From the IMG/VR virus record IMGVR_UViG_3300045988_043987: a stretch of DNA of 44,072 nucleotides. One strand, given 5' to 3'. The number at the start of each line of letters is the position of its first letter. Positions within the stretch are counted from its first letter, which is position 1. A program made the translations under genes and the position numbers. The notes under the pieces were generated by a model that saw only the letters and a program-made list of their open reading frames with translations, ran no database searches and was not told the DNA's origin. This document shows positions 24,244 through 38,089 of the stretch, piece after piece. The DNA is from a virus (lineage: Duplodnaviria > Heunggongvirae > Uroviricota > Caudoviricetes).

Positions 24244-26238
24244 ATGTCAAGCGGATGCGGTGACGTTTTAAGCCTGGCGGATTTACAAACCGCCAAGAAA
24301 CACCAGATTTTTGAAGCTGAGGTTATCACCGGCAAGTCCGGCGGTGTCGCTGGCGGTGCTGATATTGATTATGCGACCAATGCGGTTACAGGGCAGACCC
24401 AAAAGACACTACCTGCCGTGTTACGTGACGTGGGCTTCCGCCCGGCGGCATTTACGTTCGCCACTGGAGGTACGCTGGGTGTTAATGACGCAGATTTAGC
24501 GGTTTTATGGCCTATTTCCGATGGTGGCGATGGTAACTATTACGCGTGGAAAGGCGCGCTGCCGAAGGTTGTGCCTGCGGCGTCGACCCCTCTAACCACC
24601 GGCGGCGTTTCCGATGAGGCTTGGATGCCTGTGACAGAGGCCGCCTTACGTAGTGATTTAGCTTCCAGTAGTGGGGCTGGTATGATAGGGACTACCTCAG
24701 GCGCTACGGTGCAAGATACTATTAATCAAACAGGAACCCAGCAAAAGGATTTACATCCATTTGTACCAACAGGTTCTTTCGGTTCTGGTGCTTCTTTCAC
24801 TTCTACACTTCAAGTATTCGAACATAATGGCGAATATTATTCATACAAAGGACCAATTTCACCAGGTTCTACAGTCCCGGCAACACCATCATCCGATGCA
24901 AACTGGAAAAAAGAACCCGTGTCTGACTATATTGAAAATTACGGCGGCGGCGTGCATGTTGCCGACCAAACACCCGCGATATTAAAAGCTATAGATGCTG
25001 GTGTACGACGCATTGTTCTACCCAAGGGTGAGCTTAGGATGTCACCTTGTACCATACCGGGATACACCCAAGGGCTAACTTTTGTAGGTCAAGGTGCTAA
25101 CCAGGCGTACTCAGGTACTACAGTAATAAAACCGTTGAACGATGGTCAGAACTATATTTTTGGCTCTGGTGACACTAATGATGGGCAAGATAGTATTAAG
25201 TTTGAAAACATCCAGTTCGACGGTGAGTGGCGGTGCAACCACGCCATACTGCATACTCGTGGTGCCGGTTGGTACTACGAGAAGTTAACTGGCAAGAGAT
25301 TCAATACGTGGTTTATCTACGACGGTCAAGGACTTGCCAGATTTAGAGATATTTATTGCGAAGCCACTGATGCATCAGATATCTCAATCCGTGCAACGGG
25401 GGGTGGCATACGGGTGTATAGCGACTCTGTCCTGGACACTGTGGAAGTGTACGGAGGAAGCTGCCCATTAAGGTTATCAGCCGGTGGCAATCGAGCTAGC
25501 AATATCTTTTGTAATGGAGGGTATGATATCGGCGCTATAGCTTTAGAGCCACAAGATACTTCAACAAATCATATAAACACGGCGTTAAGTAATATATATA
25601 TAGGTGAGAGTACTAATACATCAGGTGTAGCTATCCCAATTTTAGCACTGTATGGAAACTCCGTAAGAAAAGTAGAATCTGTGCAAATATCTAACGCTCA
25701 TTTTGTTCATGCATCAACCACATTGAATACTAACATGACAGTTATAAGGGCTGATAAAGTTAATGGTTTTGTTATGTCTTCTTTTGATGCACTTGCCATG
25801 GGAGAATACAGCACATCTAGCCGACGTACATATAACTTCCTTAATGCAACTAATTCTACATCTATGTTATTTTCTGCTGGCAGTATTAGAGGCGTAAATA
25901 ATAATCCAATAGTATTGGGTGATGGATGCTCATTGAGCATAGATGCAGTTGAGTTTAATGGCTGGGGTACAAACTCTGATTCTGGCACTGAAAACAAAGC
26001 CGCTATCAGAACCACATCCTCCGATGCAAGGTGCGTGATAGGCTCATCATGTAACTTTACCGCAAGTCAAACAGACTCATACGCCGTTTGTGCTTATAAT
26101 GAGTTTACGGTTAGCGCATCGATACTTAACATAAACTATAGTAGTTCTACAATATTCTACCCTGCTAACGTTAATTACAGTTACATATATAAACGTCCCG
26201 GTGGTAAGATAACTTTAGTTAACACTTTTAGTGCGTAG
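24244..26238 (+). CDS. tailspike / receptor-binding protein (putative beta-helix)
   Basis: 664-aa ORF at end of tail module; N/S/T/G-rich repetitive C-terminal region. Confidence 0.7.
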   Translation: MSSGCGDVLSLADLQTAKKHQIFEAEVITGKSGGVAGGADIDYATNAVTGQTQKTLPAVLRDVGFRPAAFTFATGGTLGVNDADLAVLWPISDGGDGNYYAWKGALPKVVPAASTPLTTGGVSDEAWMPVTEAALRSDLASSSGAGMIGTTSGATVQDTINQTGTQQKDLHPFVPTGSFGSGASFTSTLQVFEHNGEYYSYKGPISPGSTVPATPSSDANWKKEPVSDYIENYGGGVHVADQTPAILKAIDAGVRRIVLPKGELRMSPCTIPGYTQGLTFVGQGANQAYSGTTVIKPLNDGQNYIFGSGDTNDGQDSIKFENIQFDGEWRCNHAILHTRGAGWYYEKLTGKRFNTWFIYDGQGLARFRDIYCEATDASDISIRATGGGIRVYSDSVLDTVEVYGGSCPLRLSAGGNRASNIFCNGGYDIGAIALEPQDTSTNHINTALSNIYIGESTNTSGVAIPILALYGNSVRKVESVQISNAHFVHASTTLNTNMTVIRADKVNGFVMSSFDALAMGEYSTSSRRTYNFLNATNSTSMLFSAGSIRGVNNNPIVLGDGCSLSIDAVEFNGWGTNSDSGTENKAAIRTTSSDARCVIGSSCNFTASQTDSYAVCAYNEFTVSASILNINYSSSTIFYPANVNYSYIYKRPGGKITLVNTFSA

Positions 26239-26242
26239 AAAT

Positions 26243-26268
26243 AAGGCCCCGAAAGGGGCCTTTTCTCT
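26243..26268. terminator. bidirectional intrinsic terminator
   Basis: AAGGCCCC-GAAA-GGGGCCTT plus TTTT. Confidence 0.7.
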
Positions 26269-26404
26269 ACTCTTCTGATACCTTCTCCAGTACAAACGCC
26301 AGTTGCGCATTAGCGGCATCTCTTTGCTGCCGTAGTCGTAGAACCTCTTCTTCAAGTTCCTTGATACGTTTTTGTAATGCCGGAATCGGGGCTATGATGT
26401 TCAT
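26267..26404 (-). CDS. hypothetical coiled-coil micro-protein (45 aa)
   Basis: ATGA coupling to stop of Toprim gene; below track cutoff. Confidence 0.3.
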   Translation of the reverse strand: MNIIAPIPALQKRIKELEEEVLRLRQQRDAANAQLAFVLEKVSEE

Positions 26405-26916
26405 CTGGTAAATTTCCTCGCAAGATACGTTATTTCTTCTTCACAAAGTTCATCAAGGTCATTTGACACAAATCCTCTGGTGAATGTTTTGCTGAACTTT
26501 AAGCCCGCTTTATCATTGTCACCGGCGCACACCCATTCATACGGCAAAAGTGACATTTGCTGCCGTAAGTCCGCTGGTATGTTCGACCCCAATGCGCTAA
26601 CTGCATTAAACCCGCAATTCATCAAAGCAACAGCTTTAAATATGCTTTCGGTAACAAATACCACCCCGCTACTCGGCAAATACTCAAGTCCCCATAAACA
26701 CGGCCTTGTTGTTCGGGTATAGTACCGCGCGTCTTTATGGTTCTTGCAGTTCTTTTCGGCGTGTGGTTTGTAGTGCTGGTACCCGCGAAGCCTACCGTCA
26801 AATCCCCACAGGTAAAACGTAGCTACTCCAGGGCCTAAGACTACACGTAAACGGTCCGCGTCAAAACCTCGTGACAGCAGATGTGCCTTAAGTAGTAACT
26901 CCTCGCTGCCCATCAT
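26401..26916 (-). CDS. Toprim-domain protein (putative)
   Basis: VTESIFKAVAL (Toprim Glu) and CAGDNDKAG (DxD) motifs. Confidence 0.5.
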   Translation of the reverse strand: MMGSEELLLKAHLLSRGFDADRLRVVLGPGVATFYLWGFDGRLRGYQHYKPHAEKNCKNHKDARYYTRTTRPCLWGLEYLPSSGVVFVTESIFKAVALMNCGFNAVSALGSNIPADLRQQMSLLPYEWVCAGDNDKAGLKFSKTFTRGFVSNDLDELCEEEITYLARKFTR

Positions 26917-28337
26917 TTCTTACCTCGTCTCTTCATGTAGTTAAGCAACTCTTCCTGCACCGATTTCTTCTCATCAGTACGCGCGGCAACAACCTCGTCA
27001 AGAGTGTCTTTGGCAACGATATGATAGAGGAACACCGGGCGCTCGTGGCCTGCCTGTTTCTGGCGGACTGGGCCTATGCGCTCGACAACCTGCAAATAGT
27101 GCTCAAGGTTCCACCCTGGCGAAATAAACGCCAGATGATGCCCGCCGTCCTGTAAATTGAGGCCGTGGCCCGCCGACGCAGGATGCACGCATAAGATTTC
27201 GATTTCGCCGCGGTTCCACGCTTCCATCTGCTTATTACCCTTAGCGCCTTTGGCGAACGCCTGCGCCTGCGGGAATCGTTTAAGGATGCGCTCCAGTTCA
27301 TGCTTGAACTGATAGGCGACTAGCAACGGTGCACCCTGCAACTCTTCCACAATGGACTCCAGTGCGTCCAGTTTCGTGTCGTGCACTTTCTCCCAGTCTT
27401 TCGTTGCTTCGCCGTCCGGCCCTGACACATACACGGCACCGGATGCAATCTGAAGGCACTTAGATGTCTTCGCCGCCGCGTTAGCCGCTTCAACTTCCCC
27501 GCTCTCCAGCTCCGCGAATAGCTTCTCCTCCATATCGATGTACGCCTGACGTGCTTTCTTCGGCAGGTCGATTTCAACCGGTACGATAATCGGCGCTTCA
27601 CATCCGAACCACTCGGCGGCGTCAATCGTGAGACTAATGTCCTTCATCTTCTGGTGAATCTCGGTATCCGCCCCCGGGCGGGCATGGTACTCGCGTGCCA
27701 TCGCCGACTTACCTTTCTGTACCGAGTTAAACCAGCGGTCTGTGAATGCCGTGTATGAAGACCCCAAGCGCTCTCCTGCGTCGATAAACCAGTTCTGGCC
27801 CCACAAGTCCTTGAGGCCGTTCGGTGATGGTGTGCCAGTCAGGTTGATAAAACGCTTAACCTTACCGAAAGCAACCTTGCTAAGAGCCTTTGCGCGCTTG
27901 CTTCCACCTGAACGGCTGCGGAACGATTTAAGCTTCGTGCTTTCATCGGCAACGATAACCGTAAAAGGCCAGTCGTCTTTGCCGTAGTAGTCAATCAGCC
28001 ACTCGATAACTTCGTAGTTTGTGCACACCACGTTAGCGTCTGACTCCAGTGCCGCGATGCGACGCCTCTCGCTACCTGTTGCATCTACGACACTCAGGCA
28101 TGGAAATCGCCATTTCTCTTGTTCTGCGGGCCATGTGCCGGATGCGACGCGCAACGGAGCGAGGATTAACACGCGGTCGTCGTCCGTAAGCTGCCCGTTG
28201 CGGAACAGTCTGTTTAACGTCCACAGTACGCTGCCAGTCTTCCCGGCACCCATGCTTGCCCATATGTTGCAGCGATGGTGCCGCAACATGAACGAGGTAA
28301 TGAGCTTCTGGTACTCGCGCCTTTGAAACTTACTCAT
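26913..28337 (-). CDS. SF2 DNA helicase (SNF2/DEAD-like)
   Basis: Walker A MGAGKTG, Walker B/DExx VIVADEST, helicase C-terminal region. Confidence 0.85.
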   Translation of the reverse strand: MSKFQRREYQKLITSFMLRHHRCNIWASMGAGKTGSVLWTLNRLFRNGQLTDDDRVLILAPLRVASGTWPAEQEKWRFPCLSVVDATGSERRRIAALESDANVVCTNYEVIEWLIDYYGKDDWPFTVIVADESTKLKSFRSRSGGSKRAKALSKVAFGKVKRFINLTGTPSPNGLKDLWGQNWFIDAGERLGSSYTAFTDRWFNSVQKGKSAMAREYHARPGADTEIHQKMKDISLTIDAAEWFGCEAPIIVPVEIDLPKKARQAYIDMEEKLFAELESGEVEAANAAAKTSKCLQIASGAVYVSGPDGEATKDWEKVHDTKLDALESIVEELQGAPLLVAYQFKHELERILKRFPQAQAFAKGAKGNKQMEAWNRGEIEILCVHPASAGHGLNLQDGGHHLAFISPGWNLEHYLQVVERIGPVRQKQAGHERPVFLYHIVAKDTLDEVVAARTDEKKSVQEELLNYMKRRGKK

Positions 28338-29254
28338 TTACAGCCCCCATGAACGCCTTTATAAATTCAGCGGCTACTTGCGGGACGATGGCATTGCCGT
28401 AACCGCGCAATCGTCCCACTCTGGCGGGTATCCCATTAGCCAGCGGGAATGTGCCGGGTTCAACTGGCCGGAACTTTCCATCCCTGCATCCGAGCCAGTC
28501 AGCATCCGACCAGAAGCTGCGATTCGGATTGCCCCCACGAGGTAGCATTGATTGTGCAGATTGTTCGGGTCTCTTTTTGTTTCCGCCTCGCTGTAGCTGC
28601 CGTGACGCGAATTCTGAACCGTCGGCGTCCCCCATGCCGCTTTCAGTCCCTGCTCTGTTGAGTAGTCCAGCCTGTCGAATGTTCTGTCCTTCCCGTCCTT
28701 GCGAATCACTGTCTCTCCGCTCCCTTTGTGATCGTTCGCTGTCGGTGTCGGCCAGTTGGTACGCACCAAAGAAGAGTCGTTCTCTTTTATGCGGAGCGCC
28801 GACGCTACAAGCTGGGAGTACGGCAAACCCGACGGCGTAGTCTTCTCCTTCCAGGTGAGTTTGTAAATCGCACATCCACGATTTTGCAATTGCTGGCGCA
28901 ACCTGTTCCCCAAAGAGGACTGGAGGGTGGCACTCGCTGATGAGGTCGAGGAAGACTGGCGCGAGGTGTCTCGGGTCGAACTGTCCGAGTTGTTTTCCTG
29001 CCGCGCTAAACGGTTGGCAAGGCGGGCTTCCCGTCCAGAGAGGCGTATCTTCCGAAACTCCCGCAAGTCTGAGCGCGAGAGGCCAGCCGCCGATGCCAGC
29101 GAAAAAAATGACACTGGGTGAACCCGTCAAGGTCTTCTGGCTTAACTTCGGTAATGCTTCTTTCATCTACAACTCCAAAAGGTATGTGACCCTGTTTTAT
29201 TAATTCACGCAGCCACGCGGCTGCACCTTTATCCCATTCATTGTAATAGTTCAT
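28330..29254 (-). CDS. DNA cytosine-5 methyltransferase, reading frame interrupted at a homopolymer
   Basis: motifs NEWDK, FFAGIGGW, PCQPFSAAGK, GEQV, GNAIVPQVA; N-terminal 82-aa ORF (29254-29006) and catalytic ORF (29166-28330) differ by one base at the A7 run 29102-29108. Confidence 0.75.
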
Positions 29255-29442
29255 TTGGCCACCAGAACTAACTCTTTACGCCCGAACGCCGTAACGTTAC
29301 CTGTTACGTCTTCGATAACCAGTTTGCCGTTCGACTCTACGAACACTGTATCAACGGCAACAGGACGACGGGTCTTAACGTTGAAAATCATGTCGCCCGG
29401 TACGATGTCACGTGCTGGTTTGCGGTCATATTCGTGTTTCAT
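29251..29442 (-). CDS. hypothetical protein (63 aa)
   Basis: AAGGA ribosome-binding site; stop overlaps methyltransferase start (ATGA). Confidence 0.55.
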   Translation of the reverse strand: MKHEYDRKPARDIVPGDMIFNVKTRRPVAVDTVFVESNGKLVIEDVTGNVTAFGRKELVLVAK

Positions 29443-29461
29443 TTCTCAATTCCTTATATTG

Positions 29462-29492
29462 TTGGTGTAGGACTAACTATAGTAGTTCGCTA
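29462..29492 (-). promoter_or_regulatory. sigma70-like promoter (TTGACG-17-TATAGT) with dyad operator in spacer
   Basis: minus-strand TTGACG, 17-bp spacer containing AATAGCGAACTACTAT, -10 TATAGT. Confidence 0.5.
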
Positions 29493-29757
29493 TTAGGTCG
29501 TCAACCTGTTTGAACGAACCAACGACAAAAACATTTGCACCACGTTTGCGCATCCGCTCGTGCTCTCGTAACTGGTGCGGGTCAGGCTTCGTGCTTTCGT
29601 CTTTCTTAACCTCGACGAACCAGATGATGCCGCCGGGGAGAATTACCAGCAGGTCAGGAGCGCCGGAGCGCCCCTCGTAGGAAAGTTTACGAACGAGGCC
29701 ACCAATGGCCTCGAATCGCTCTTTTGCGTATTTCTGTATTTTTCCTTCCGGGGTCAC
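29473..29757 (-). CDS. VRR-NUC domain nuclease
   Basis: PD-(D/E)XK-like pattern GAPDLLVILPGGIIWFVEVKK ... HQLREHERMRKRGANVFVV. Confidence 0.65.
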   Translation of the reverse strand: MTPEGKIQKYAKERFEAIGGLVRKLSYEGRSGAPDLLVILPGGIIWFVEVKKDESTKPDPHQLREHERMRKRGANVFVVGSFKQVDDLIANYYS

Positions 29758-29948
29758 AGCAAAGGCTCCGCATCCGGGTTACGCAGGAAGTACGCTTGAT
29801 AGATGTCGTGTTCTGAATAGTAAACGCCTTTGTGCGTACACCCGGCACAAACGTCACTAAAGAACCCATCACCCATTACCATGATAAATTCCCATTCTGG
29901 CATATCCACCAACGCAGCTAGTTTCTTACTAAATGGTTTGTTGCTCAT
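29754..29948 (-). CDS. hypothetical protein (64 aa)
   Basis: ATG at 29948 preceded by GAGGGG. Confidence 0.5.
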   Translation of the reverse strand: MSNKPFSKKLAALVDMPEWEFIMVMGDGFFSDVCAGCTHKGVYYSEHDIYQAYFLRNPDAEPLL

Positions 29949-30030
29949 AATACGCACCCCTCTCGTTTTGTATGCTCAATACCACAGCGCGGACAGATTC
30001 GGCAGTCTTCTTCATAAAACCAGTAAATTT

Positions 30031-30162
30031 TCATTCCAGCACCCACAGATAAATTGCGATGAACATGCCCAGTACGGCGACAATCATGCCGTATTGGCCC
30101 TCGTGACAGTAGACACCGGCGGCAAATCCCGCCAGTACCGCGATAATCAGTTTACTTAGCAT
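30031..30162 (-). CDS. hypothetical membrane micro-protein (43 aa)
   Basis: ATG overlaps last codons of DNA polymerase gene; single hydrophobic helix pair; below track cutoff. Confidence 0.3.
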   Translation of the reverse strand: MLSKLIIAVLAGFAAGVYCHEGQYGMIVAVLGMFIAIYLWVLE

Positions 30163-32335
30163 AGCGCTTCATCTCCGCACCTTCCGCCACAAGAGGGAAC
30201 CCCTCTGCCCACTCCGGTAATTCGCACATCAACCGCTCAAGCTCTGCAACATTGTATTCCGGTAAATCTGGCGTCTCGCAGATAATCTCATCGTGAACAT
30301 GAAGTACAATCGGGTAGCCGTTTGCCTCTACGTTCAGCAGCGCATTAGCCAGCAAATCACGGCACAGCGCCTGCGTGCAGTTTTCCACCAGTTTACCGGA
30401 GTAGGTGTACTGAAAGCCCCACTGACGGGTTAGCTGATTTTCACCCTGATACTTGATGCGGACGTTAGTAGACACTTTTCCATCTTCGTCTGTCTCTTTC
30501 GACACGCTTAACCCAACACCCGGATAAGACATAACACGACCCGACGGCAGCGTCATACGCAACCACCAACCGGCGACTTTGTTGCCGTTGTTGTCTGTCT
30601 CCACGTTACGCGAAAACTTAACTCCCCGCGGCCCTGCGGTGAACTCTTTACCTGGATTGCGAATAGCTGCCATAGCCGCATCTTCAATATCTCGCCAGAA
30701 AGCTACGGTTTCCGGGTGGGACTCACGCCACATGCGTTTGATAGCGTCACAGGTACGCCACACTTTCTTATCAAGAATATATGATGGTCGGTCATCTTTT
30801 TCACCTGGCCGCGGAGGCCGCTTGGCTTCCTGAATACGCGCCCACTCATATCCACGCGCGGTAGCGGCCCAGATGTGGTCGGGGAAAGTACCGTCCATTG
30901 TTTTAGCCATATCAACAAGGTCAAGGCCGAGGTTCTTAGCAAACTGAACGAAAGCACCTACACCGCCTGCGTAGCCGAGGCCCAATTCGCAGGCTTTACC
31001 AATCTGCCGTAAGTCTTTACGTTCTTTCTTAATGTAATCCGGCTCCATGCCAAACATCTTACCTGCGGTTACGCAGTAAATATCCAGCCCAGCACGGAAC
31101 GTATCTAACGCGGTTTCTTCCCCCGCCAGCCACGCGAGACCGCGGCCTTCAACGTTAGAGTAATCGGCAACGACAAACTTATGCCCGGCTTCCGGGATAA
31201 TGCAGCTACGAACCGTCGATGCCGTCAGCTTGGCTACATCGAAACGGCGGTGCGCGCGGCCCTTAAGTAACGCTGAAATGCCTTTATCCAGTTCATCATC
31301 ATCATGGTAATACCCGCGCGCCAGGTTCTGCGGCTGGAAGCCTTTACCCGCAAACCGTAACGTACGCTTTGCCCCACCGTACTGGATGCAACCGCGGCGT
31401 CGGTCGTCAGAAGAGCGGCCTAACAGCAGCGGGTTATATTTCGTTGACGCCGTGGACGCGGCCCCGAGGCGCATTTCGATAATCGTGCGGGCGTCGTCCG
31501 GTAAATCATCATCCGCCAGCAGGTCATTCAGCGTCGACTTCTGCGCATTGTGGATGCGGTGCGCGGGTGCGAGTTCACGCAGAATCGGAAGGAAGTCTTT
31601 ACCGGTAAGCGAGCCGCCGTATTTGCGCTGTGCTTCTTCCTGTAACTGCGCTTTATGTTTCTCCACGGCTTCAATCGCGGCTTCCGCCAGCGCGACGTCA
31701 ACCTTAAACCCTCGGTCATTGATTAACTGGTCCAGTTCCAGTACGCGGTCCTCGAACTCAGAGTTACCCCACCGCGGTAGCTTATGGAAAACTTCACGCA
31801 TCGCAGTGATGTCGCTCACGGCGTACTTGATGAATAGCGCCCACTCGTCCGGGTGTGTTTCGGCGGTGTAACGGCGGATTTTGTAGTTCTTCGGCGTAGG
31901 TTTAGAAAAACGCTGAATCAGTGCCTTGCCGCGTTTATCTTTCGCGTTGTCCGCGGATACGCCCAGCACTTCGCACAGCGCATCGAGAGAACCCGGCAGC
32001 GCGTGACGAAACGCCCAAATCATCGTATCAATGGTGTTGCTTACCGGAATATCAAAGCCCCAGCAGTGCTTCATGATGAGCCTATCGAAAAGTCCACCGT
32101 TGTGCCACACCATCTTAATTCGGCTGTTTGGCTTCACCAGACGGCGTAACACGCGGTGCAAATCCCCCGGCATGTCGCTGCCGTCCGTGCAATCCCACAC
32201 CTGCACAGGCTCGTCATCGAAAGCATAGGTACAGATTAACACTTCGGTTGACGGGTGTTCGGCGTAAGCGTAGGAACCGACTTTCTTTAAATCGGCTTCG
32301 GAGAATGTTTCAAAGTCTAAGAACAGGTAACTCAT
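30152..32335 (-). CDS. DNA polymerase, family A, with 3'-5' exonuclease domain
   Basis: N-terminal Exo I motif LFLDFETFS; 727 aa; polymerase-domain pattern. Confidence 0.9.
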   Translation of the reverse strand: MSYLFLDFETFSEADLKKVGSYAYAEHPSTEVLICTYAFDDEPVQVWDCTDGSDMPGDLHRVLRRLVKPNSRIKMVWHNGGLFDRLIMKHCWGFDIPVSNTIDTMIWAFRHALPGSLDALCEVLGVSADNAKDKRGKALIQRFSKPTPKNYKIRRYTAETHPDEWALFIKYAVSDITAMREVFHKLPRWGNSEFEDRVLELDQLINDRGFKVDVALAEAAIEAVEKHKAQLQEEAQRKYGGSLTGKDFLPILRELAPAHRIHNAQKSTLNDLLADDDLPDDARTIIEMRLGAASTASTKYNPLLLGRSSDDRRRGCIQYGGAKRTLRFAGKGFQPQNLARGYYHDDDELDKGISALLKGRAHRRFDVAKLTASTVRSCIIPEAGHKFVVADYSNVEGRGLAWLAGEETALDTFRAGLDIYCVTAGKMFGMEPDYIKKERKDLRQIGKACELGLGYAGGVGAFVQFAKNLGLDLVDMAKTMDGTFPDHIWAATARGYEWARIQEAKRPPRPGEKDDRPSYILDKKVWRTCDAIKRMWRESHPETVAFWRDIEDAAMAAIRNPGKEFTAGPRGVKFSRNVETDNNGNKVAGWWLRMTLPSGRVMSYPGVGLSVSKETDEDGKVSTNVRIKYQGENQLTRQWGFQYTYSGKLVENCTQALCRDLLANALLNVEANGYPIVLHVHDEIICETPDLPEYNVAELERLMCELPEWAEGFPLVAEGAEMKRYAK

Positions 32336-32352
32336 TATTTTCGACCCTTAGT

Positions 32353-32377
32353 AAAAAGGCCCAATGAAGGGCCTTAG
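32353..32377 (-). terminator. intrinsic terminator/attenuator between SSB and polymerase genes
   Basis: minus-strand hairpin GGCCC-N6-GGGCC followed by TTTTTA. Confidence 0.55.
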
Positions 32378-32394
32378 TTAAATTGATTCAGATA

Positions 32395-33024
32395 TTAACG
32401 GCGACGACGTTCGCGACGTGGTGCGTCATCTTCTTCGTCGTCTTCAAGGTCGTCGGTGCTCGCTACTACACTGGAGCCTCCGAAGCGTTTACCTTCTCCC
32501 ATATACTTGATACCAAGGATGGTAGCGCACAGGTTTTTCCAATCTTTGTGCCACCATAATTCTACAGATACGTTTGCTACACAACCGCTATAAACCTGCT
32601 CCCCTTCTACTTCCTTCCCGTCGATGTTGAAATCAGGCTCGGTTTGTTTTTCACCTTTAGCCGATGTCATAATCACCGGTTGGCGGTTGTTAGTAGCACG
32701 GAAGTACAGACCTTCTTCAAAATCCTCAATCGGATTGTCGCGCATTGCCAGGTCGCGGACGCAGCATTTGTCTGCGTGGTGGTCTGCACCGTAGTTGGCC
32801 TTCATCCATTTCTCAGCAGCAGCAGCCCCGATTGCCTCTGTTACAACTTCCATAGCGGTATCGTAAAGCGCATCAATTTGAGGATGGTCCGGCTGCATAA
32901 GAACAGTAACCTGATATTTACCCTTAATCAGTTTACCGGTTTTCTTGTCCTCAGAGTCGGCAGCACGTTCAAATACATTAACCCATGCAGTGTTTACTTT
33001 ACGCAGATTCAGCTTAATACCCAT
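32395..33024 (-). CDS. single-stranded DNA-binding protein (T7 gp2.5-like, putative)
   Basis: overall pattern and acidic C-terminal stretch DDLEDDEEDD, here followed by RRERRRR. Confidence 0.5.
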   Translation of the reverse strand: MGIKLNLRKVNTAWVNVFERAADSEDKKTGKLIKGKYQVTVLMQPDHPQIDALYDTAMEVVTEAIGAAAAEKWMKANYGADHHADKCCVRDLAMRDNPIEDFEEGLYFRATNNRQPVIMTSAKGEKQTEPDFNIDGKEVEGEQVYSGCVANVSVELWWHKDWKNLCATILGIKYMGEGKRFGGSSVVASTDDLEDDEEDDAPRRERRRR

Positions 33025-33074
33025 CTTGATTTCTCGCTTTTAAGTTTCGTTTACTCCGGGAACTGCCCGGCCAG

Positions 33075-33106
33075 TGGTTAGAAATATAATAGCTAACTAT
33101 TCAGGT
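33075..33106 (-). promoter_or_regulatory. sigma70-like promoter (TTGACA-17-TATATT) with dyad operator in spacer
   Basis: minus-strand GTGTTGACA, 17-bp spacer containing TGAATAGTTAGCTATT, -10 TATATT; upstream of SSB gene. Confidence 0.6.
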
Positions 33107-33115
33107 GTCAACACT

Positions 33116-34378
33116 TTATTCCAAATCTTCTTCACTAACCCGATTCCACTCAGGCCGTTTGTCGTCGGCTGTTGCGACGCATGGCGCCCCCCGCTTGCGT
33201 GTGATGAAGTCTTTCAGTTCTTCTTCCGGTATTACTTTAACCGCTTCGGTCGGTGTCATGAGCACTACCTTTTGCAGCATAGTACCGTACTTCTCGAATA
33301 CTGCATCGGCATCTTTCCACGCACGATTACCTGGGCGGCCCTCGACCAGCTTGTACCCCGGCACTTTCTTACCGGAATGCAACGCGACCGCCATAGCTTT
33401 CTCAACCTTGTCGATGTGCTGGCGCAACAACGGCAACTTCTCGTACTCAGATACGAGTTGCTCTGGTGTCAGTTCCAGTGCAAAGTCGTCTTCCAGTTCT
33501 TCCGCCAGTACCGCGTTAACTGTTTTTGTACGCGCGGCGCACTGTTCAGAGAAACGACACCACTGACAACCATCGACCGACGGCTTGAAGTCCGACGCTT
33601 TCAGGTTCTTCTTGCCACGGAAATACGCATCAAGAGCCAACAGCGCGCGTTTTTGTGCGAACTTAGCGAACAGTTCCAGACCTTCAACCGAGATATCCCA
33701 CTCCGACGCACCTCCGGCATACGGCTGGAAGATGGCCAGACGAACCATGGTGATGTTATAGCGTCTCTTGAGTCGGCGATAAACACCGAGAGCGTAAAGC
33801 ATAAGCTGCTTGTTTTCTTTCGCTTCGACGCGATGTCTCCCGGTTTTAAGGTCGCCGATAATGAGCATTGCTGAGTTACTTTCACCCGTAAAGCCTTCTA
33901 TAACCGCCACTAAGTCGGCGGTTCCGAACGTCTCAACACCTTCATAGCCCGGATGCAATACCTCAGTAAGATTGACGCGCATTTCCAGCTTAGCGTAAGT
34001 CGCTACATCGATAATAGCTTTGCAGTAGTCGGTGTACTTGCGCACCTGCTCAATCATGTCAGCTGTAATCAGTACCGCGCCTTTCATCGGACTGATTAGC
34101 GCCTTAATATGGCCTTTACCATCATCCAGAACATACGCACCTACTTCACGCTCTAACGGCAGCGCAGTTCCGCGAATATAGGCGTTGAGATGTACCTCAG
34201 CTATGGTGTGGCACGCGGTCCCTGTAACGGCGGCTTTACCCGACGTGTTAGGAATATCTTTTTCACAGGCTAGCGATGCACTGCACGTCAGCCACTTCTT
34301 AGCACCTGACGGCGACAGTAGGGCGTGCACATCGTTATTACCACCGCGTTCTTTTAGAATCATACTCTGCTCTCCCAC
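33116..34378 (-). CDS. PD-(D/E)XK exonuclease, RecB/Cas4-like with Cys cluster
   Basis: nuclease core IIGDLKTG...EAKE...QLMLYALG; N-terminal Cys and C-terminal CQWCRFSEQC. Confidence 0.65.
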   Translation of the reverse strand: MGEQSMILKERGGNNDVHALLSPSGAKKWLTCSASLACEKDIPNTSGKAAVTGTACHTIAEVHLNAYIRGTALPLEREVGAYVLDDGKGHIKALISPMKGAVLITADMIEQVRKYTDYCKAIIDVATYAKLEMRVNLTEVLHPGYEGVETFGTADLVAVIEGFTGESNSAMLIIGDLKTGRHRVEAKENKQLMLYALGVYRRLKRRYNITMVRLAIFQPYAGGASEWDISVEGLELFAKFAQKRALLALDAYFRGKKNLKASDFKPSVDGCQWCRFSEQCAARTKTVNAVLAEELEDDFALELTPEQLVSEYEKLPLLRQHIDKVEKAMAVALHSGKKVPGYKLVEGRPGNRAWKDADAVFEKYGTMLQKVVLMTPTEAVKVIPEEELKDFITRKRGAPCVATADDKRPEWNRVSEEDLE

Positions 34379-34632
34379 TGGTCAATTAAATGTCGCGTCT
34401 TATGGTCGCAGTGCATCGCCCACCCGTACATCGACTCGAAGACATAAAAGTCAGGTTTGGCGAAAGTCGTGCGTTTAATCTGCGACACATGACGGCCTAT
34501 ATCTTTATGCCGTGGTACTTTGCCTAAGTATGCCATCTCTTCCATCTGGTGCGCACCTGACGTCGCACGCAATAGCCACAACGCCTCGGTGTTATCCCGC
34601 CTGTCTACGGCGCGGTAGAGTTGGTAAATCAT
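34360..34632 (-). CDS. hypothetical protein (90 aa)
   Basis: ORF in replication module. Confidence 0.5.
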   Translation of the reverse strand: MIYQLYRAVDRRDNTEALWLLRATSGAHQMEEMAYLGKVPRHKDIGRHVSQIKRTTFAKPDFYVFESMYGWAMHCDHKTRHLIDQWESRV

Positions 34633-34675
34633 AATTCCGACCCTCAGTTAAAGCGGCCCGAAGGCCGCGAGATAG

Positions 34676-35146
34676 TTATTCTTCTTCGAAATACTTGTTC
34701 TTGATTGCTGTCAAGCGTTCCAGGTATTCAGCCAGGTCTTCGTCTTTAATCGCAGCAATCTTCATCTTCTTGCCGGTGAACTCTTCCAGCAGTTCATCTG
34801 AATCATCGCACGCGGCATCGCTAGGACCTTCGTTAATAGCATCGTCGATAGCCTGAATCTGGTCACGCAGAGACTGGTAATCTACCTCTTCCTTCTCTTC
34901 TTCCGGCTCTGGCGTTGGTTCCTCTACTTTAGCTTTACGCGGCTTGCGTTTCGGCTTCTCTTCTTCTGCCGGTTTAGTGTCGACGATGTCTTCACCTTCG
35001 ACCGGGATTTCTTTTGTTGCTTCTTTTACAACATTAGGCTCAATTGTTGCGGTTTCAGCAACGACAACTTGTTTCGCACTGTTCGCAGCAATCAGTTCAT
35101 GTGCAACTACGAAACGTTCCAGTAATACTAAGAATTTCTCTAACAT
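34676..35146 (-). CDS. hypothetical acidic protein (156 aa)
   Basis: Glu/Asp-rich ORF; GAGAGGAGAGA before start. Confidence 0.55.
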   Translation of the reverse strand: MLEKFLVLLERFVVAHELIAANSAKQVVVAETATIEPNVVKEATKEIPVEGEDIVDTKPAEEEKPKRKPRKAKVEEPTPEPEEEKEEVDYQSLRDQIQAIDDAINEGPSDAACDDSDELLEEFTGKKMKIAAIKDEDLAEYLERLTAIKNKYFEEE

Positions 35147-35167
35147 TTGTTTCTCTCCTCTCGTTTG

Positions 35168-35200
35168 GTATGCACTAACTATAATAGCTAACTATTCATT
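35168..35200 (+). promoter_or_regulatory. dyad operator/promoter motif, copy upstream of helix-turn-helix gene (site 1)
   Basis: ATGCAC-TAAC-TATAAT-AGCTAACTATTCA. Confidence 0.55.
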
Positions 35201-35221
35201 ATGTCAATGGGCTTTTCTAAA

Positions 35222-35250
35222 ATAATTAATATGGTACTATTCACATATCA
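35222..35250 (+). promoter_or_regulatory. dyad operator/promoter motif, site 2, about 20 nt before ribosome-binding site of helix-turn-helix gene
   Basis: TAATATGGTACTATTCACAT, one mismatch from canonical copies. Confidence 0.55.
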
Positions 35251-35271
35251 ACTGACTAAGGAGTAATTGAC

Positions 35272-35487
35272 ATGCAACCATCTGAACTAGGCATCCGTGT
35301 AGAACAACGCCGTAAAGAACTCGGTATCTCCCAGCGCCGTCTGGCGGTCCTGGCCGGTGTTTCCCAGGGCGCGATTAACCAGCTGGCACTTGGAGTAACT
35401 CAGGACGTCCGCCCGGCGACGCTGTTCAAGCTGGCGGAAGTGCTGGAAGTAGACGCCAAGTGGCTGGCGTTCGGTGAAGGGGCTTAA
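35272..35487 (+). CDS. XRE-family (Cro/CI-like) helix-turn-helix transcriptional regulator
   Basis: helix-turn-helix signature ISQRRLAVLAGVSQGAINQL; AAGGAG ribosome-binding site; lone plus-strand gene in minus-strand module. Confidence 0.75.
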   Translation: MQPSELGIRVEQRRKELGISQRRLAVLAGVSQGAINQLALGVTQDVRPATLFKLAEVLEVDAKWLAFGEGA

Positions 35488-35503
35488 CGCCCCTTTCTTT
35501 TCA
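35477..35503 (+). terminator. intrinsic terminator
   Basis: GGGGC-TTAAC-GCCCC followed by TTTCTTTTC. Confidence 0.6.
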
Positions 35504-35527
35504 TTCCTCTACGGCTTTCTCGCATAA

Positions 35528-35638
35528 TCACTCGAGAAACGAAACAAGACCGCAGATTAAATCCTCAGAAACAATAAATTGGCCGTCATCTTCCTGTTCG
35601 CACTGCTTCAACTCAGCAATTAACTGTTCAGCGTTCAT
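35528..35638 (-). CDS. hypothetical acidic micro-protein (36 aa)
   Basis: ATGA coupling to primase stop; below track cutoff. Confidence 0.25.
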   Translation of the reverse strand: MNAEQLIAELKQCEQEDDGQFIVSEDLICGLVSFLE

Positions 35639-37896
35639 TCCAAATCCTCATCTGTCACCACCAGCATTTCATTCGGTTCGTATATTGTCTTCGGAATTTT
35701 GTTGTCGTTTATACCCCACGGCAGCCGGTACTGCTTAGGTATAGGTCTGTTGTTGCCATCCAGACCTGAGACGATAACCCCAGCCTCGTGCATCTCTTCC
35801 AGTTTCTTTCTAAGGTCGTTATTGGCGTTAATTGGTACGCCATAACTATCTTCTTTCGCGGCTTTGACGATAGCCGACATAGAGAACCCTCGCTTATCGT
35901 CGCCCTGCTCCTGCAATTTACCCAATGCGTAAATAACCGTAGCCTCTTTGGTGTCCAGTTTCTCGAACTGGCCTACCTTTTCTTTAACGGCTTCCTTCTG
36001 TTCGTCGGTCATACCTTCTACTTTCTTCACGAAGACAGAGAAGGCGTTAAAGTTAACAAAGACATCGATGTGCGGGTTTCCTGCGTCAAAATCGCGGACA
36101 TCATCACTACTGTACCCTTCCGGAAGACCCATGAAGTTGTGAGTTGGCTCTTTCTTTTTCGGTGGCTCCGCTATCTGAATCTTCTGTATTACAAATCCTC
36201 TGGCTTTCTGCCGTTCTCCGTTTCGGTTCTTTATGTGATACAGGTTTATCCCTAAGTTATTGTCGTTGTCAGGCTTATGCAGGAACATCCCGTTATCGAT
36301 GGAGTTGTGAAAGTCACTTCCACCCTTCGGCATCATGCCGTTTTCCGACGGTACTGTTTCGTCGATGTTTTTAGTCGGGTGCACCATAGCACCTACCGCG
36401 GCGTTAAGCGTCGACGCTATTTCGTTAAGTGCCTGCGCCGCTTCTTTCATTGACCTGTTGTCGTTTTCGTCAAAGCCAGGTATGCAAGTTTGCAGGGTAT
36501 CAAACGTAACCTTTACAATTTTCTCTTCACCGGCAACACGGCGCATCATTCTCACCACCTGACGTCGCCATGCTTCGTCGAGTAAGTTACATCCCTCCGC
36601 AACACAATCGATAATGTGCAAGCGGTCCAAGTTATCGCCGAGGGCAATCTGCAAAGATTTTTTATGTCGCTCGAACGACCGCACACCTTCACCCGCAAAA
36701 ATAAACGCATGACCTTCCGCTACCTCAGCCCCGCCGAACGCATATCTTTTTTCGGCAGCAATAGCGGCGTCAATCGCCATACTAAATGTTGACTTACCGG
36801 TATGCGACTTTGCACAAATGTAGAATGATTCGTTAGTCTGCATAAGACCATCTACGACGGAGTATGCAGGTTCTTTTTCTAATTCCGGCTCGTCTTCAAG
36901 GTCTTCCAGCGTGCAAGTTACAGGTTCCTCGTTCTCTGTGCGGTGCAGTTCTTCAATCTCTTCATCAGGTAAATCAGGCAGAGCCGCGCGAATGCTGTTA
37001 ACGCTGATAGGTTGCTTGTCTACGTTAAGCTCGTCAGGTAGACCACACATACGCAGGGCCAAATGCTGCCTACGGTTAAGCTCGGTGCAAGCGCCGTTGT
37101 TTGTATGCTGGCAGACAAAGCGCACTTCTTTACCGTCTAGCATGATGCTGGTGGAGCCTTTGCCTGTGTGCAGATGTTCGTTAGGGCATGGCACTTCGTA
37201 CCCGCGCCCGGAAGATAAAGCATCAAGCCCAAGCTCGGCTTCGCAGAAATGCGCTATATCTGCGTTAAGCCCATGCTCATCGGCAGCAAGTGTCTTGGCT
37301 TCGCGTTTACGCAACCCCATCTCTTCGGCTTTCTTGATGTACCGCTCGGCACGGATAACACGCCCCTCTGTAACCGTTATCTTCGACTCTTTATGCGGCA
37401 GGTAGATAAGGCGGTTGCCATCTTCTGTGCAGTGGTCACGCAGCGATTCATCTATTTCTAACTCTGCACAAATAGCCCGTTGCACCATCCACGCATCGTT
37501 AGAGTTAAACGGAGTGCGAGCCGGAACCAGAACGCGGAATGCGTAATCCCCGTTTTTACACGCGTGCTGATGCGATGCCGTTGTGTGCAGAATATTGAAG
37601 AACGGCGCGTTCTTGAATTTGCGTGTCAGGTCGCGGTACTGAGTACGGTTGAGATGGTCGAAGTCGAACTTAACCACACTGTCTTCCAGAATCGCATTCT
37701 TACGGCGACCGCCAACAGGAGCAATAGCCTTCTGCTTAATCTTAGCCGCGTCGTATTCTTCCTTAGTCCACGACGGGTCCACGGACAAACGCTTCGATGT
37801 ATCGCAGACGTACTCTACAAACTGCTCCAGCGGCATTTCACGTGCTACAGGGTTTTTATCGAATGTGTTACGCAGCGTTGCAAAAACAATATTCAT
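35635..37896 (-). CDS. DNA primase / P-loop ATPase (primase-helicase-like replication protein)
   Basis: Cys/His zinc-binding cluster, Walker A SHTGKST, 753 aa. Confidence 0.75.
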   Translation of the reverse strand: MNIVFATLRNTFDKNPVAREMPLEQFVEYVCDTSKRLSVDPSWTKEEYDAAKIKQKAIAPVGGRRKNAILEDSVVKFDFDHLNRTQYRDLTRKFKNAPFFNILHTTASHQHACKNGDYAFRVLVPARTPFNSNDAWMVQRAICAELEIDESLRDHCTEDGNRLIYLPHKESKITVTEGRVIRAERYIKKAEEMGLRKREAKTLAADEHGLNADIAHFCEAELGLDALSSGRGYEVPCPNEHLHTGKGSTSIMLDGKEVRFVCQHTNNGACTELNRRQHLALRMCGLPDELNVDKQPISVNSIRAALPDLPDEEIEELHRTENEEPVTCTLEDLEDEPELEKEPAYSVVDGLMQTNESFYICAKSHTGKSTFSMAIDAAIAAEKRYAFGGAEVAEGHAFIFAGEGVRSFERHKKSLQIALGDNLDRLHIIDCVAEGCNLLDEAWRRQVVRMMRRVAGEEKIVKVTFDTLQTCIPGFDENDNRSMKEAAQALNEIASTLNAAVGAMVHPTKNIDETVPSENGMMPKGGSDFHNSIDNGMFLHKPDNDNNLGINLYHIKNRNGERQKARGFVIQKIQIAEPPKKKEPTHNFMGLPEGYSSDDVRDFDAGNPHIDVFVNFNAFSVFVKKVEGMTDEQKEAVKEKVGQFEKLDTKEATVIYALGKLQEQGDDKRGFSMSAIVKAAKEDSYGVPINANNDLRKKLEEMHEAGVIVSGLDGNNRPIPKQYRLPWGINDNKIPKTIYEPNEMLVVTDEDLE

Positions 37897-38021
37897 TTCT
37901 TTTTCTCCGCACGTTCTAAGGCTTCCTGCATACGACGCATTGCGCGGTTCATCTTTACCGGTGCGAAGAAATCAGCGCCGTGTTTCTGGCGGCGTAGCTG
38001 TGGAACTATTAACTTCGTCAT
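37893..38021 (-). CDS. hypothetical basic micro-protein (42 aa)
   Basis: AAGGA ribosome-binding site; stop overlaps primase ATG (ATGA); below track cutoff. Confidence 0.3.
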   Translation of the reverse strand: MTKLIVPQLRRQKHGADFFAPVKMNRAMRRMQEALERAEKKK

Positions 38022-38089
38022 TGTATAATCCTTGTGCTTACTTTGATGATTTGTACTTTAACCCCGACGTTCTGGCGTTGGGGTTTCTT

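Follow-up and report, generated by a model that had tools for sequence, protein, structure and literature searches.

Micro-ORFs in the replication units of a Kagunavirus-type phage are probably genuine small protein-coding genes

Translational coupling between cistrons whose stop and start codons overlap is known from the E. coli pairs trpE-trpD and trpB-trpA and from many phage operons. Membrane proteins p1 and p16.7 of phage phi29 organise DNA replication at the membrane. In phage T7, the acidic C-terminal tails of the gp4 helicase-primase and of the gp2.5 single-stranded DNA-binding protein (SSB) dock on the polymerase and need a terminal aromatic residue. Here, we analysed four small open reading frames (ORFs) in the replication region of IMG/VR virus record IMGVR_UViG_3300045988_043987, a stretch of 44,072 nucleotides (nt) referred to below as the window. 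An initial annotation had proposed them to be real micro-proteins appended to replication genes. Our main finding is that all four ORFs very probably are true genes for small proteins, carried by two polycistronic early/replication units of a Kagunavirus phage. Phage proteins of <100 amino acids (aa) are abundant and modulate host or phage processes (review PMC11323111). The paper on the BASEL collection describes Kagunavirus phages and is silent on these ORFs; the genus is a synthetic-biology and BASEL model (PMC11990801). The four ORFs are as follows:

26267-26404, minus strand: m1, a 45-aa leucine-zipper-like coiled-coil micro-protein of PHROG 5915, identified by its ORF, its ATGA overlap with the Toprim stop, tblastn and PHROG
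30031-30162, minus strand: m2, a 43-aa hydrophobic peptide of PHROG 10404, identified by its ORF, tblastn, PHROG and hydropathy profile
35528-35638, minus strand: m3, a 36-aa acidic ORF, truncated allele of a 45-48 aa family, whose ATG overlaps the helicase-primase stop (ATGA)
37893-38021, minus strand: m4, a 42-aa basic micro-protein of PHROG 23061, with its own AAGGA site at 38029-38033 and a stop that overlaps the helicase-primase ATG

Like trp-type coupled cistrons, these ORFs lie on the same strand and in the same unit as their partners, with ATGA overlaps and Shine-Dalgarno sequences inside the last codons of the upstream gene. Unlike trp-type cistrons, all four have a Shine-Dalgarno-like sequence of their own, and m4 is the upstream partner and follows a 68-nt gap. 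They also resemble small phage proteins and morons in being very small, encoded in early operons and restricted to a lineage. As is typical of morons, the presence of m3 and m4 varies among close relatives; m1 and m2, on the other hand, occur in all close loci and are core rather than accessory. The ORFs further differ from classical morons in that they have no promoter or terminator of their own and share the signals of the operon: no promoter-like site was found ahead of m3 or m4 in the scan.

The ~12-kb region around the four ORFs has ~90% nt identity to Escherichia and Raoultella Kagunavirus (Guernseyvirinae) phages and 80-85% to Salmonella Jersey-like phages, and by sequence the whole 44-kb window can be assigned to a Kagunavirus-type phage genome (E. 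coli phage type). Full-length matches with E-values of 1e-22 to 1e-34 link m1 to PHROG 5915/13851, m2 to PHROG 10404, m4 to PHROG 23061 and a further ORF of 29 aa (see below) to PHROG 38225. These are Guernseyvirinae families of ‘unknown function’, with members of the same length and position listed as hypothetical proteins in phages Golestan, RP180, Bas70-76 and others. The window copies are ordinary members of these families and differ from them in nothing of substance. m1, m2 and m4 are already known as predicted ORFs, being coding sequences or hypothetical proteins in dozens to hundreds of related genomes. The arrangement is standard operon architecture with translational coupling, and the finding, though correct, is an ordinary one.

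All four ORFs are present at exactly the coordinates listed, and their composition is as initially described: m1 is a coiled coil, m2 a membrane peptide, m3 acidic (net -8) and m4 basic (net +8). The reported junctions were accurate in part. ATGA overlaps with large genes, which had been claimed for all four, are seen for m1 (Toprim stop), m3 (helicase-primase stop) and m4 (helicase-primase ATG), and the m4 start has AAGGA 7 nt 5′ of it as described. The start of m2, however, overlaps the polymerase 3′ end by 11 nt (ATGCTAAGTAA) rather than by ATGA; its ATGA overlap is found at its stop, where the partner is the 29-aa micro-ORF (29945-30034) and not a large gene.

Overlap geometry does not single out these ORFs. 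Among the 19 junctions in the minus-strand block 38553-26267, 9 are 4-nt overlaps, and since 5 of those 9 involve other genes, the geometry is not special to the four. The ATGA overlap is the default junction of this operon block and is not diagnostic of real genes. Equally long open frames arise in local shuffles with P=0.056 (m1), 0.075 (m2), 0.170 (m3) and 0.104 (m4), and across the six frames of the window there are 89 ATG-started ORFs of 36-59 codons. From this sequence alone, none of the four ORFs exceeds chance. These figures are what speaks for regarding the ORFs as chance open frames in spacers, with ATGA overlaps as by-products of upstream genes ending in ..A TGA; the m3 ATG, for example, arises from the last helicase-primase codons GAA-TGA.

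Comparison with relatives makes this explanation barely credible. We compared the ORFs with 50,697 phage records by tblastn and with 74 related IMG/VR loci, retrieved with the polymerase (PolA, 30152-32335) as anchor. The frames are open in tens to hundreds of diverged genomes, with most of the variation at codon position 3, and the ratio of nonsynonymous to synonymous substitution rates (dN/dS) in the predicted frame is 0.16 for m1 (32 distinct nt sequences), 0.21 for m2 (39 sequences), 0.27 for the m3 family and 0.04 for m4. A frame kept open, a third-position excess and a dN/dS far below 1 are thus found together in m1, m2, the m3 family and m4. When the other frames of m1, m2 and m4 are analysed, 4 of the 5 give a dN/dS of ~1 or more and contain stops, for m1 and m2 in nearly every sequence; the single alternative frame with a low dN/dS is the antisense frame that shares the wobble positions. 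Length is also maintained, m2 having 43 codons in 43/43 loci, and where the slot after the helicase-primase is empty, that gene ends in ATAG or GTAG instead of ATGA. Judged from these alignments, chance as a general explanation is already refuted by the codon-position and dN/dS analyses. The initial conclusion that these are real micro-proteins is therefore retained, with its support coming from comparative evidence and not from the consistent coupling geometry on which it had been based.

It might also be argued that the conservation reflects nucleic-acid elements, such as terminators, a replication origin or a regulatory RNA, and not peptides. m1 and m3 adjoin terminator hairpins, a conserved hairpin lies just 5′ of m4, and the m4 DNA is very conserved. 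The hairpins fall outside the ORFs, however, and the ORFs show three-base periodicity in their own frame, with stops in the antisense and alternative frames. Moreover, no Rfam family was found in the region, and the predicted fold around m4 is not significant. We regard this explanation as very improbable.

Several observations weigh against reading all four ORFs as genes. Our literature search turned up no proteomic or ribosome-profiling data on them; what it found on these phages was genome announcements and the BASEL description, with no functional or translational data on the ORFs. Each ORF has its own Shine-Dalgarno-like sequence, so that strict dependence on upstream translation is not required. 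Functional roles would have to be drawn from composition and position, as homology assigns none: Pfam searches gave sub-threshold coiled-coil matches for m1 (DUF1192, ZapB, SlyX) and sub-threshold EMC6/MARVEL matches for m2, all of which we treated as composition effects. The initial annotation had named conservation in related phages, free of interrupting stops, as a check, and m1 and m2 are indeed conserved. The window copy of m3, though, has a premature stop relative to its relatives of 45-48 aa, beyond which the frame still runs through LCEKAVEE to the ancestral stop at 35501, and m4 is truncated in 4/43 isolate genomes, those of the viable phages Schulenburg, Shashou, Snoke and Sciku. In addition, the m4 DNA is 95-99% identical in 43/43 records (~90% for the block), and few substitutions carry its test.

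The analysis yields five conserved micro-proteins: the core genes m1 and m2, the allele-linked m4, the accessory cassette m3 and a four-Cys peptide. It confirms that real genes in phage replication modules are hidden by cut-offs on ORF length, and that what tells real small genes from the ~90 spurious ones in such a window is the comparison of codons among relatives and not the geometry of the overlaps. It also points to two hot-spots for the accumulation of accessory small genes. In practical terms the gain is modest, and current understanding is unchanged.

The large neighbours of the ORFs, and the hairpins that bound their transcription units, are listed below:

26401-26916, minus strand: Toprim-domain gene, 171 aa (Pfam Toprim_2, PHROG 849), the 5′ neighbour of m1
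30152-32335, minus strand: DNA polymerase I-type gene, 727 aa, which relatives list as DNA polymerase, the 5′ neighbour of m2
35635-37896, minus strand: replicative helicase-primase, 753 aa, with the type A N-terminus MNIVFATLRN (PHROG 3228, E-value 1.6e-294; Pfam AAA_25), between m4 (upstream) and m3 (downstream)
~26237-26266, no strand assigned: GC-rich hairpin GGCCCC-TTTC-GGGGCC with T/A runs on both sides, read from the sequence and absent from the terminator-scan list
35476-35497, no strand assigned: hairpin with T/A runs on both sides, found by the terminator scan on the plus strand only, its minus-strand reading being taken from the sequence

The hairpin at ~26237-26266 begins right after the m1 stop and is kept 3′ of m1 in most relatives; we read it as a bidirectional terminator between m1 and the plus-strand tail-fibre gene. 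Similarly, we take the hairpin at 35476-35497 to terminate transcription in both directions, between m3 and the convergent gene for a Cro-like helix-turn-helix (HTH) protein, and to end the unit of m4, helicase-primase and m3. A strong promoter-like site, TTGACA-18-TATAGT, is located at 35207-35178 on the minus strand, in the divergent region that adjoins the Cro-like HTH gene. Two transcription units therefore follow from this site and the two hairpins: unit 1 comprises m4, the helicase-primase and m3, and unit 2 comprises a 156-aa gene, the polymerase, m2, the helicase, the Toprim gene and m1. Each unit ends with a micro-ORF, m3 in unit 1 and m1 in unit 2. A second sigma-70-like promoter-like site is found at 33083-33111 (minus strand), directly after the exonuclease stop and ahead of an SSB-like gene. 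Both promoter-like sites are near-consensus, with 11/12 matches, and they split the replication block into transcription units.

The scan found no promoter or terminator between coupled partners. Shared strand, shared unit and a stop/start overlap are found for Toprim/m1, helicase-primase/m3, m4/helicase-primase and m2/29-aa ORF, as well as for PolA/m2 with its overlap of 11 nt. None of the four starts is without its own ribosome-binding site: Shine-Dalgarno-like GAGGA, GGAG or AAGGA sequences lie 6-11 nt 5′ of every micro-ORF start. Those of m1, m2 and m3 are inside the 3′ codons of the upstream cistron; m4 starts after the 68-nt gap and has its own AAGGA. The micro-ORFs would accordingly be expected to be translated from polycistronic early mRNAs, in which ribosomes that end one cistron can start the next; termination-reinitiation probably helps, together with the Shine-Dalgarno-like sequences.

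m1 was matched in 215 Kagunavirus and Jerseyvirus records, where it is mostly annotated as a hypothetical protein, and it was found in 30/30 loci with a PolA that is ≥85% identical. Its match to PHROG 5915 (E-value 2.7e-27) places residues 1-45 on profile positions 3-47 of 53, and its variable sites are distributed 21/14/38 over codon positions 1/2/3. The heptad pattern consists of I14, L17, V21, L24, R28, A31, L35, V38 and V42. The family includes 172 protein clusters of 41-78 aa on contigs of 40-45 kb, and its longer members (47-85 aa, PHROG 13851) have differing N- and C-termini around a near-invariant core, RIKELE.E..RLRQQRDAANAQL. The m1 peptide would form a leucine-zipper-like helix of ~32 residues with the near-invariant core (RLRQQRDAANAQL) in it, and most likely dimerises or docks on a conserved partner.

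The m1 ATG is kept with at least five different upstream genes (helicase, HNH endonucleases, Toprim and other inserts), and the terminator hairpin lies directly 3′ of the gene. By its sequence context, m1 appears to be a core gene that invariably comes last in the operon, downstream of the helicase. The Toprim gene (26401-26916) is absent in many relatives, in which m1 directly follows the helicase or HNH endonuclease genes are found instead. Because the helicase-m1 interval holds Toprim, HNH or nothing, with the ATGA start of m1 kept each time, it is another insertion hot-spot. We considered whether m1 is the C-terminus of a larger protein and rejected this, since each variant stands alone as an ORF whose own ATG lies in an ATGA overlap. 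Some m1 homologues (e.g. NC_042084.1 gp31; L001 530-667) bear the RefSeq/UniRef name ‘exonuclease subunit (SbcD)’, which is probably an annotation transfer. The name looks artefactual because all 172 clusters are peptides of 41-78 aa and their Pfam matches are sub-threshold coiled-coil matches only.

m2 was matched in 224 phage records, again of Kagunavirus and Jerseyvirus and mostly annotated as hypothetical protein. It is present in 33/33 loci with a polymerase ≥85% identical and has an ATG start in 42/43 loci. Residues 1-43 align with profile positions 1-43 of 43 in PHROG 10404 (E-value 9.1e-31), and no relatives outside this phage group were found among 1.84 billion representative proteins. 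Two predicted membrane-spanning segments flank a polar, near-invariant YCHEGQYG loop. In two loci (L014 and L022), another gene separates m2 from the polymerase and the m2 start is nonetheless kept. We infer that m2 is a core gene for a membrane hairpin peptide with both termini inside (N-in/C-in), as predicted by the positive-inside rule. The peptide most likely acts at the inner membrane, and the near-invariant loop would be its working part. By analogy, m2 might be compared with phi29 p1 and p16.7 as a small membrane-anchored protein among replication genes; it is far smaller (43 aa) than these and has no soluble domain, so the likeness is one of analogy only. A class II holin or pinholin was also considered. 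The two hydrophobic segments fit, but the protein is only 43 aa long and ends right after the second segment, with none of the charged C-terminal domain of such holins, and it lies between the polymerase and small replication-module ORFs and not in a lysis cassette. We thus rejected this assignment.

Directly downstream of m2 lies a fifth micro-ORF that the initial annotation had overlooked:

29945-30034, minus strand: 29-aa ORF (MKIYWFYEEDCRICPRCGIEHTKREGCVL) of PHROG 38225, with four Cys (CxxCxxC...C)

It is shorter than the ORFs that annotation covered, and it shares one ATGA overlap with m2 on its upstream side and another with a 64-aa ORF on its downstream side. Across 50 related loci, its dN/dS is 0.09 and its variable sites are distributed 10/7/22 over codon positions 1/2/3.

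m3 is distributed differently. The 36-aa query had no tblastn match among the 50,697 phage records, a degenerate DNA pattern for CEQEDDGQFIV gave 0 matches in IMG/VR, and no PHROG or Pfam family was found; the homologues are uncurated metagenomic clusters only. In a collection of 5.8 billion proteins, searched with the query padded with XXXX to 40 aa, the family consists of 12 metagenome protein clusters with 75-100% identity, on contigs mostly of 40-45 kb. In nr, the 36-aa product is listed as ‘MAG TPA: hypothetical protein [Bacteriophage sp.]’. All homologues start in the same 4-nt overlap with the helicase-primase stop. Nine distinct sequences were available for the dN/dS given above, with 9/2/15 variable sites at codon positions 1/2/3. 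The clusters are 45 or 48 aa long in 11 cases, and the window allele alone has 36 aa, owing to the following change:

35501-35530, minus strand: premature TGA at m3 codon 37 (35530-35528) and ancestral tail; relatives have CGA or GGA, then LCEKTVEE*

A decaying pseudogene, i.e. what is left of an accessory cassette after a nonsense mutation disabled it, could account for this change. TGA has replaced CGA/GGA at codon 37, the last eight ancestral codons and the stop are still recognisable, and the slot is dispensable, being empty in many relatives. On the other hand, all 22 invariant columns of the family lie within residues 1-35 and are kept (22/22), so that the stop cuts off only the variable tail, and no further disabling changes are present. 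This 36-aa allele is carried by 10 contigs, which come from at least 2 different samples (ENA ERZ28646732, Logan SRR8090798). It is therefore not an assembly error, and it persists in nature. We consider a pseudogene possible but doubtful. m3 would instead be an accessory acidic mini-domain in a hot-spot slot, with the window carrying a circulating allele that has kept the core and lost the variable C-terminal tail.

An AlphaFold2 model of m3, based on an alignment of 12 sequences, predicts a mini-domain of helix, hairpin and helix (predicted local distance difference test score, pLDDT, 89). A fold search with the model gave nothing significant in PDB. Its sole notable BFVD match is A0A291AX48, an uncharacterised 76-aa protein of Salmonella phage St162 (47% identity over 34 columns, root-mean-square deviation 0.5). 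This match suggests that the m3 core may also occur as a domain of a longer protein of a Jersey-like isolate, which the 36-aa tblastn search missed.

The slot between the helicase-primase stop and the convergent terminator is variable. It is empty in 21 loci (the gene ending in ATAG or GTAG) and holds a 65-aa ORF in 7 loci, a 104-aa hydrophobic ORF in 6 loci and single ORFs of 135 and 191 aa in two Jersey-like loci. Other loci have m3 in it, either alone or with the 104-aa ORF behind it, and each insert starts at ATGA. A second slot of this kind is found after the PD-(D/E)XK exonuclease gene. Comparison of the junctions in L001, L007, L010, L012, L016, L083 and L087 revealed a common motif, represented in the window by a single site:

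35635-35655, minus strand: junction motif ACAGATGAGGATTTGGAATGA, comprising the last helicase-primase codons (..TDEDLE*), GAGGA and the ATGA that starts m3

This is the only match to the motif in the window, and none is expected by chance. In relatives, it stands ahead of each coupled small ORF that follows the helicase-primase or the exonuclease. Both enzymes end in an acidic (S/T)E(E/D/G)DLE across the subfamily, and occupied junctions at both gene ends read ACAGAGGAGGATTT(G/A)GAATGA, which provides a strong Shine-Dalgarno sequence and ATGA; ACAGAGGAGGATTTRGAATGA is common to them. When the exonuclease slot is empty, as it is in the window (33116-33140, minus strand), the near-identical tail SEEDLE is coded by AGTGAAGAAGATTTGGAATAA, with no Shine-Dalgarno sequence and with a TAA stop. 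There are five alternative families of coupled small ORFs after the helicase-primase and eight after the exonuclease. The small genes at the two junctions, m3 among them, range in length over 20-191 aa, and almost all fall within 45-104 aa. Two loci have a second copy of the motif where a 48-aa form of m3 ends, ahead of the 104-aa ORF. Furthermore, the last 19 helicase-primase residues (PKTIYEPNEML.VT.EDLE) are identical between alleles that are 32-60% identical overall, and their DNA is almost identical.

These features could be taken to mean that the junction of ~21 nt (TEEDLE codons, Shine-Dalgarno sequence and ATGA) is a portable plug-in site, at which at least 13 unrelated small-gene families have been swapped with coupled expression. 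If true, it would be a simple recombination-based cassette system for the acquisition of small genes in small siphophages. We think this quite unlikely. No small-ORF family is common to the helicase-primase and exonuclease slots, which leaves a direct transfer of cassettes from one to the other without support. Selection for coupling, together with a conserved docking tail, is no less likely an explanation than a recombination site. The acidic (S/T)E(E/D)DLE end shared by helicase-primase and exonuclease is reminiscent of the T7 tails, although it ends in Glu and not in an aromatic residue. A weaker variant of such proposals would make m4, m1 and m2 unrecognised accessory subunits of the replisome.

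m4 was found in 43 phage records, all of Kagunavirus and 32 of them identical as protein, and in only five clusters of the wider protein collection. It matches PHROG 23061 with residues 1-42 on profile positions 1-42 of 42 (E-value 6.8e-34). All 13 loci with a type-A helicase-primase (MNIVFATLRN) have m4, compared to 0 of the ~57 loci typed with other N-termini, and type-A alleles are down to 60% identical overall. Kagunavirus helicase-primases of type A and type B (MSDVILSYSW) share 32% identity, in the C-terminal half only (L077, L080, L083). Four cultured isolates carry m4 broken: in Schulenburg, GAA is changed to TAA at codon 36, and codon 26 has lost 1 nt in Shashou, Snoke and Sciku. We conclude that m4 is a real gene linked to one helicase-primase allele and dispensable for plaque growth. 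It would be inherited as one module with the type-A N-terminus and most likely serves that enzyme, either as an accessory factor or as a coupled upstream cistron.

The latter role, taken further, would make m4 mainly a regulatory cistron, whose translation delivers ribosomes to the helicase-primase start or unmasks it and whose peptide has little or no function. The geometry is suited to this, as the m4 stop overlaps the helicase-primase ATG and the GGAG of that start lies within the last m4 codons. m4 is restricted to the type-A N-terminus, its DNA, including the 29 nt upstream, is conserved at 95-99% against ~90% for the whole block, and the four isolates with a truncated m4 are viable. In those same isolates, however, the disrupted ORF stops 17-19 nt short of the helicase-primase ATG, and the phages grow. 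The predicted RNA structure is no more stable than that of shuffles (z = -0.98). Among 12 distinct sequences, codon position 3 accounts for 11/17 variable columns (binomial P=0.008), almost every variant is synonymous, and the two indel variants, of 41 and 45 aa, keep the frame. The m4 peptide thus does not vary freely as that of a leader peptide or upstream ORF would, in a test that is weak because substitutions are few. We judge a mainly regulatory role to be a live rival but an unlikely one, and favour m4 as a protein-coding gene.

The initial description of the ORFs as appended to replication genes fits m4 alone, which is tied to a specific neighbour allele. For the others it is misleading: what precedes m1 is a Toprim, helicase or HNH gene, according to the phage, m2 keeps its place when another gene is inserted after the polymerase, and m3 is one of several alternative cassettes.

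Finally, an 11-bp GC-rich hairpin at 38060-38085 lies between a 70-aa gene and m4; in phage fBC-Eco01 it carries a terminator annotation. On the plus strand, where it has a T-run, its score is that of an intrinsic terminator, although no gene reads into it, and on the minus strand it has no U-tract.

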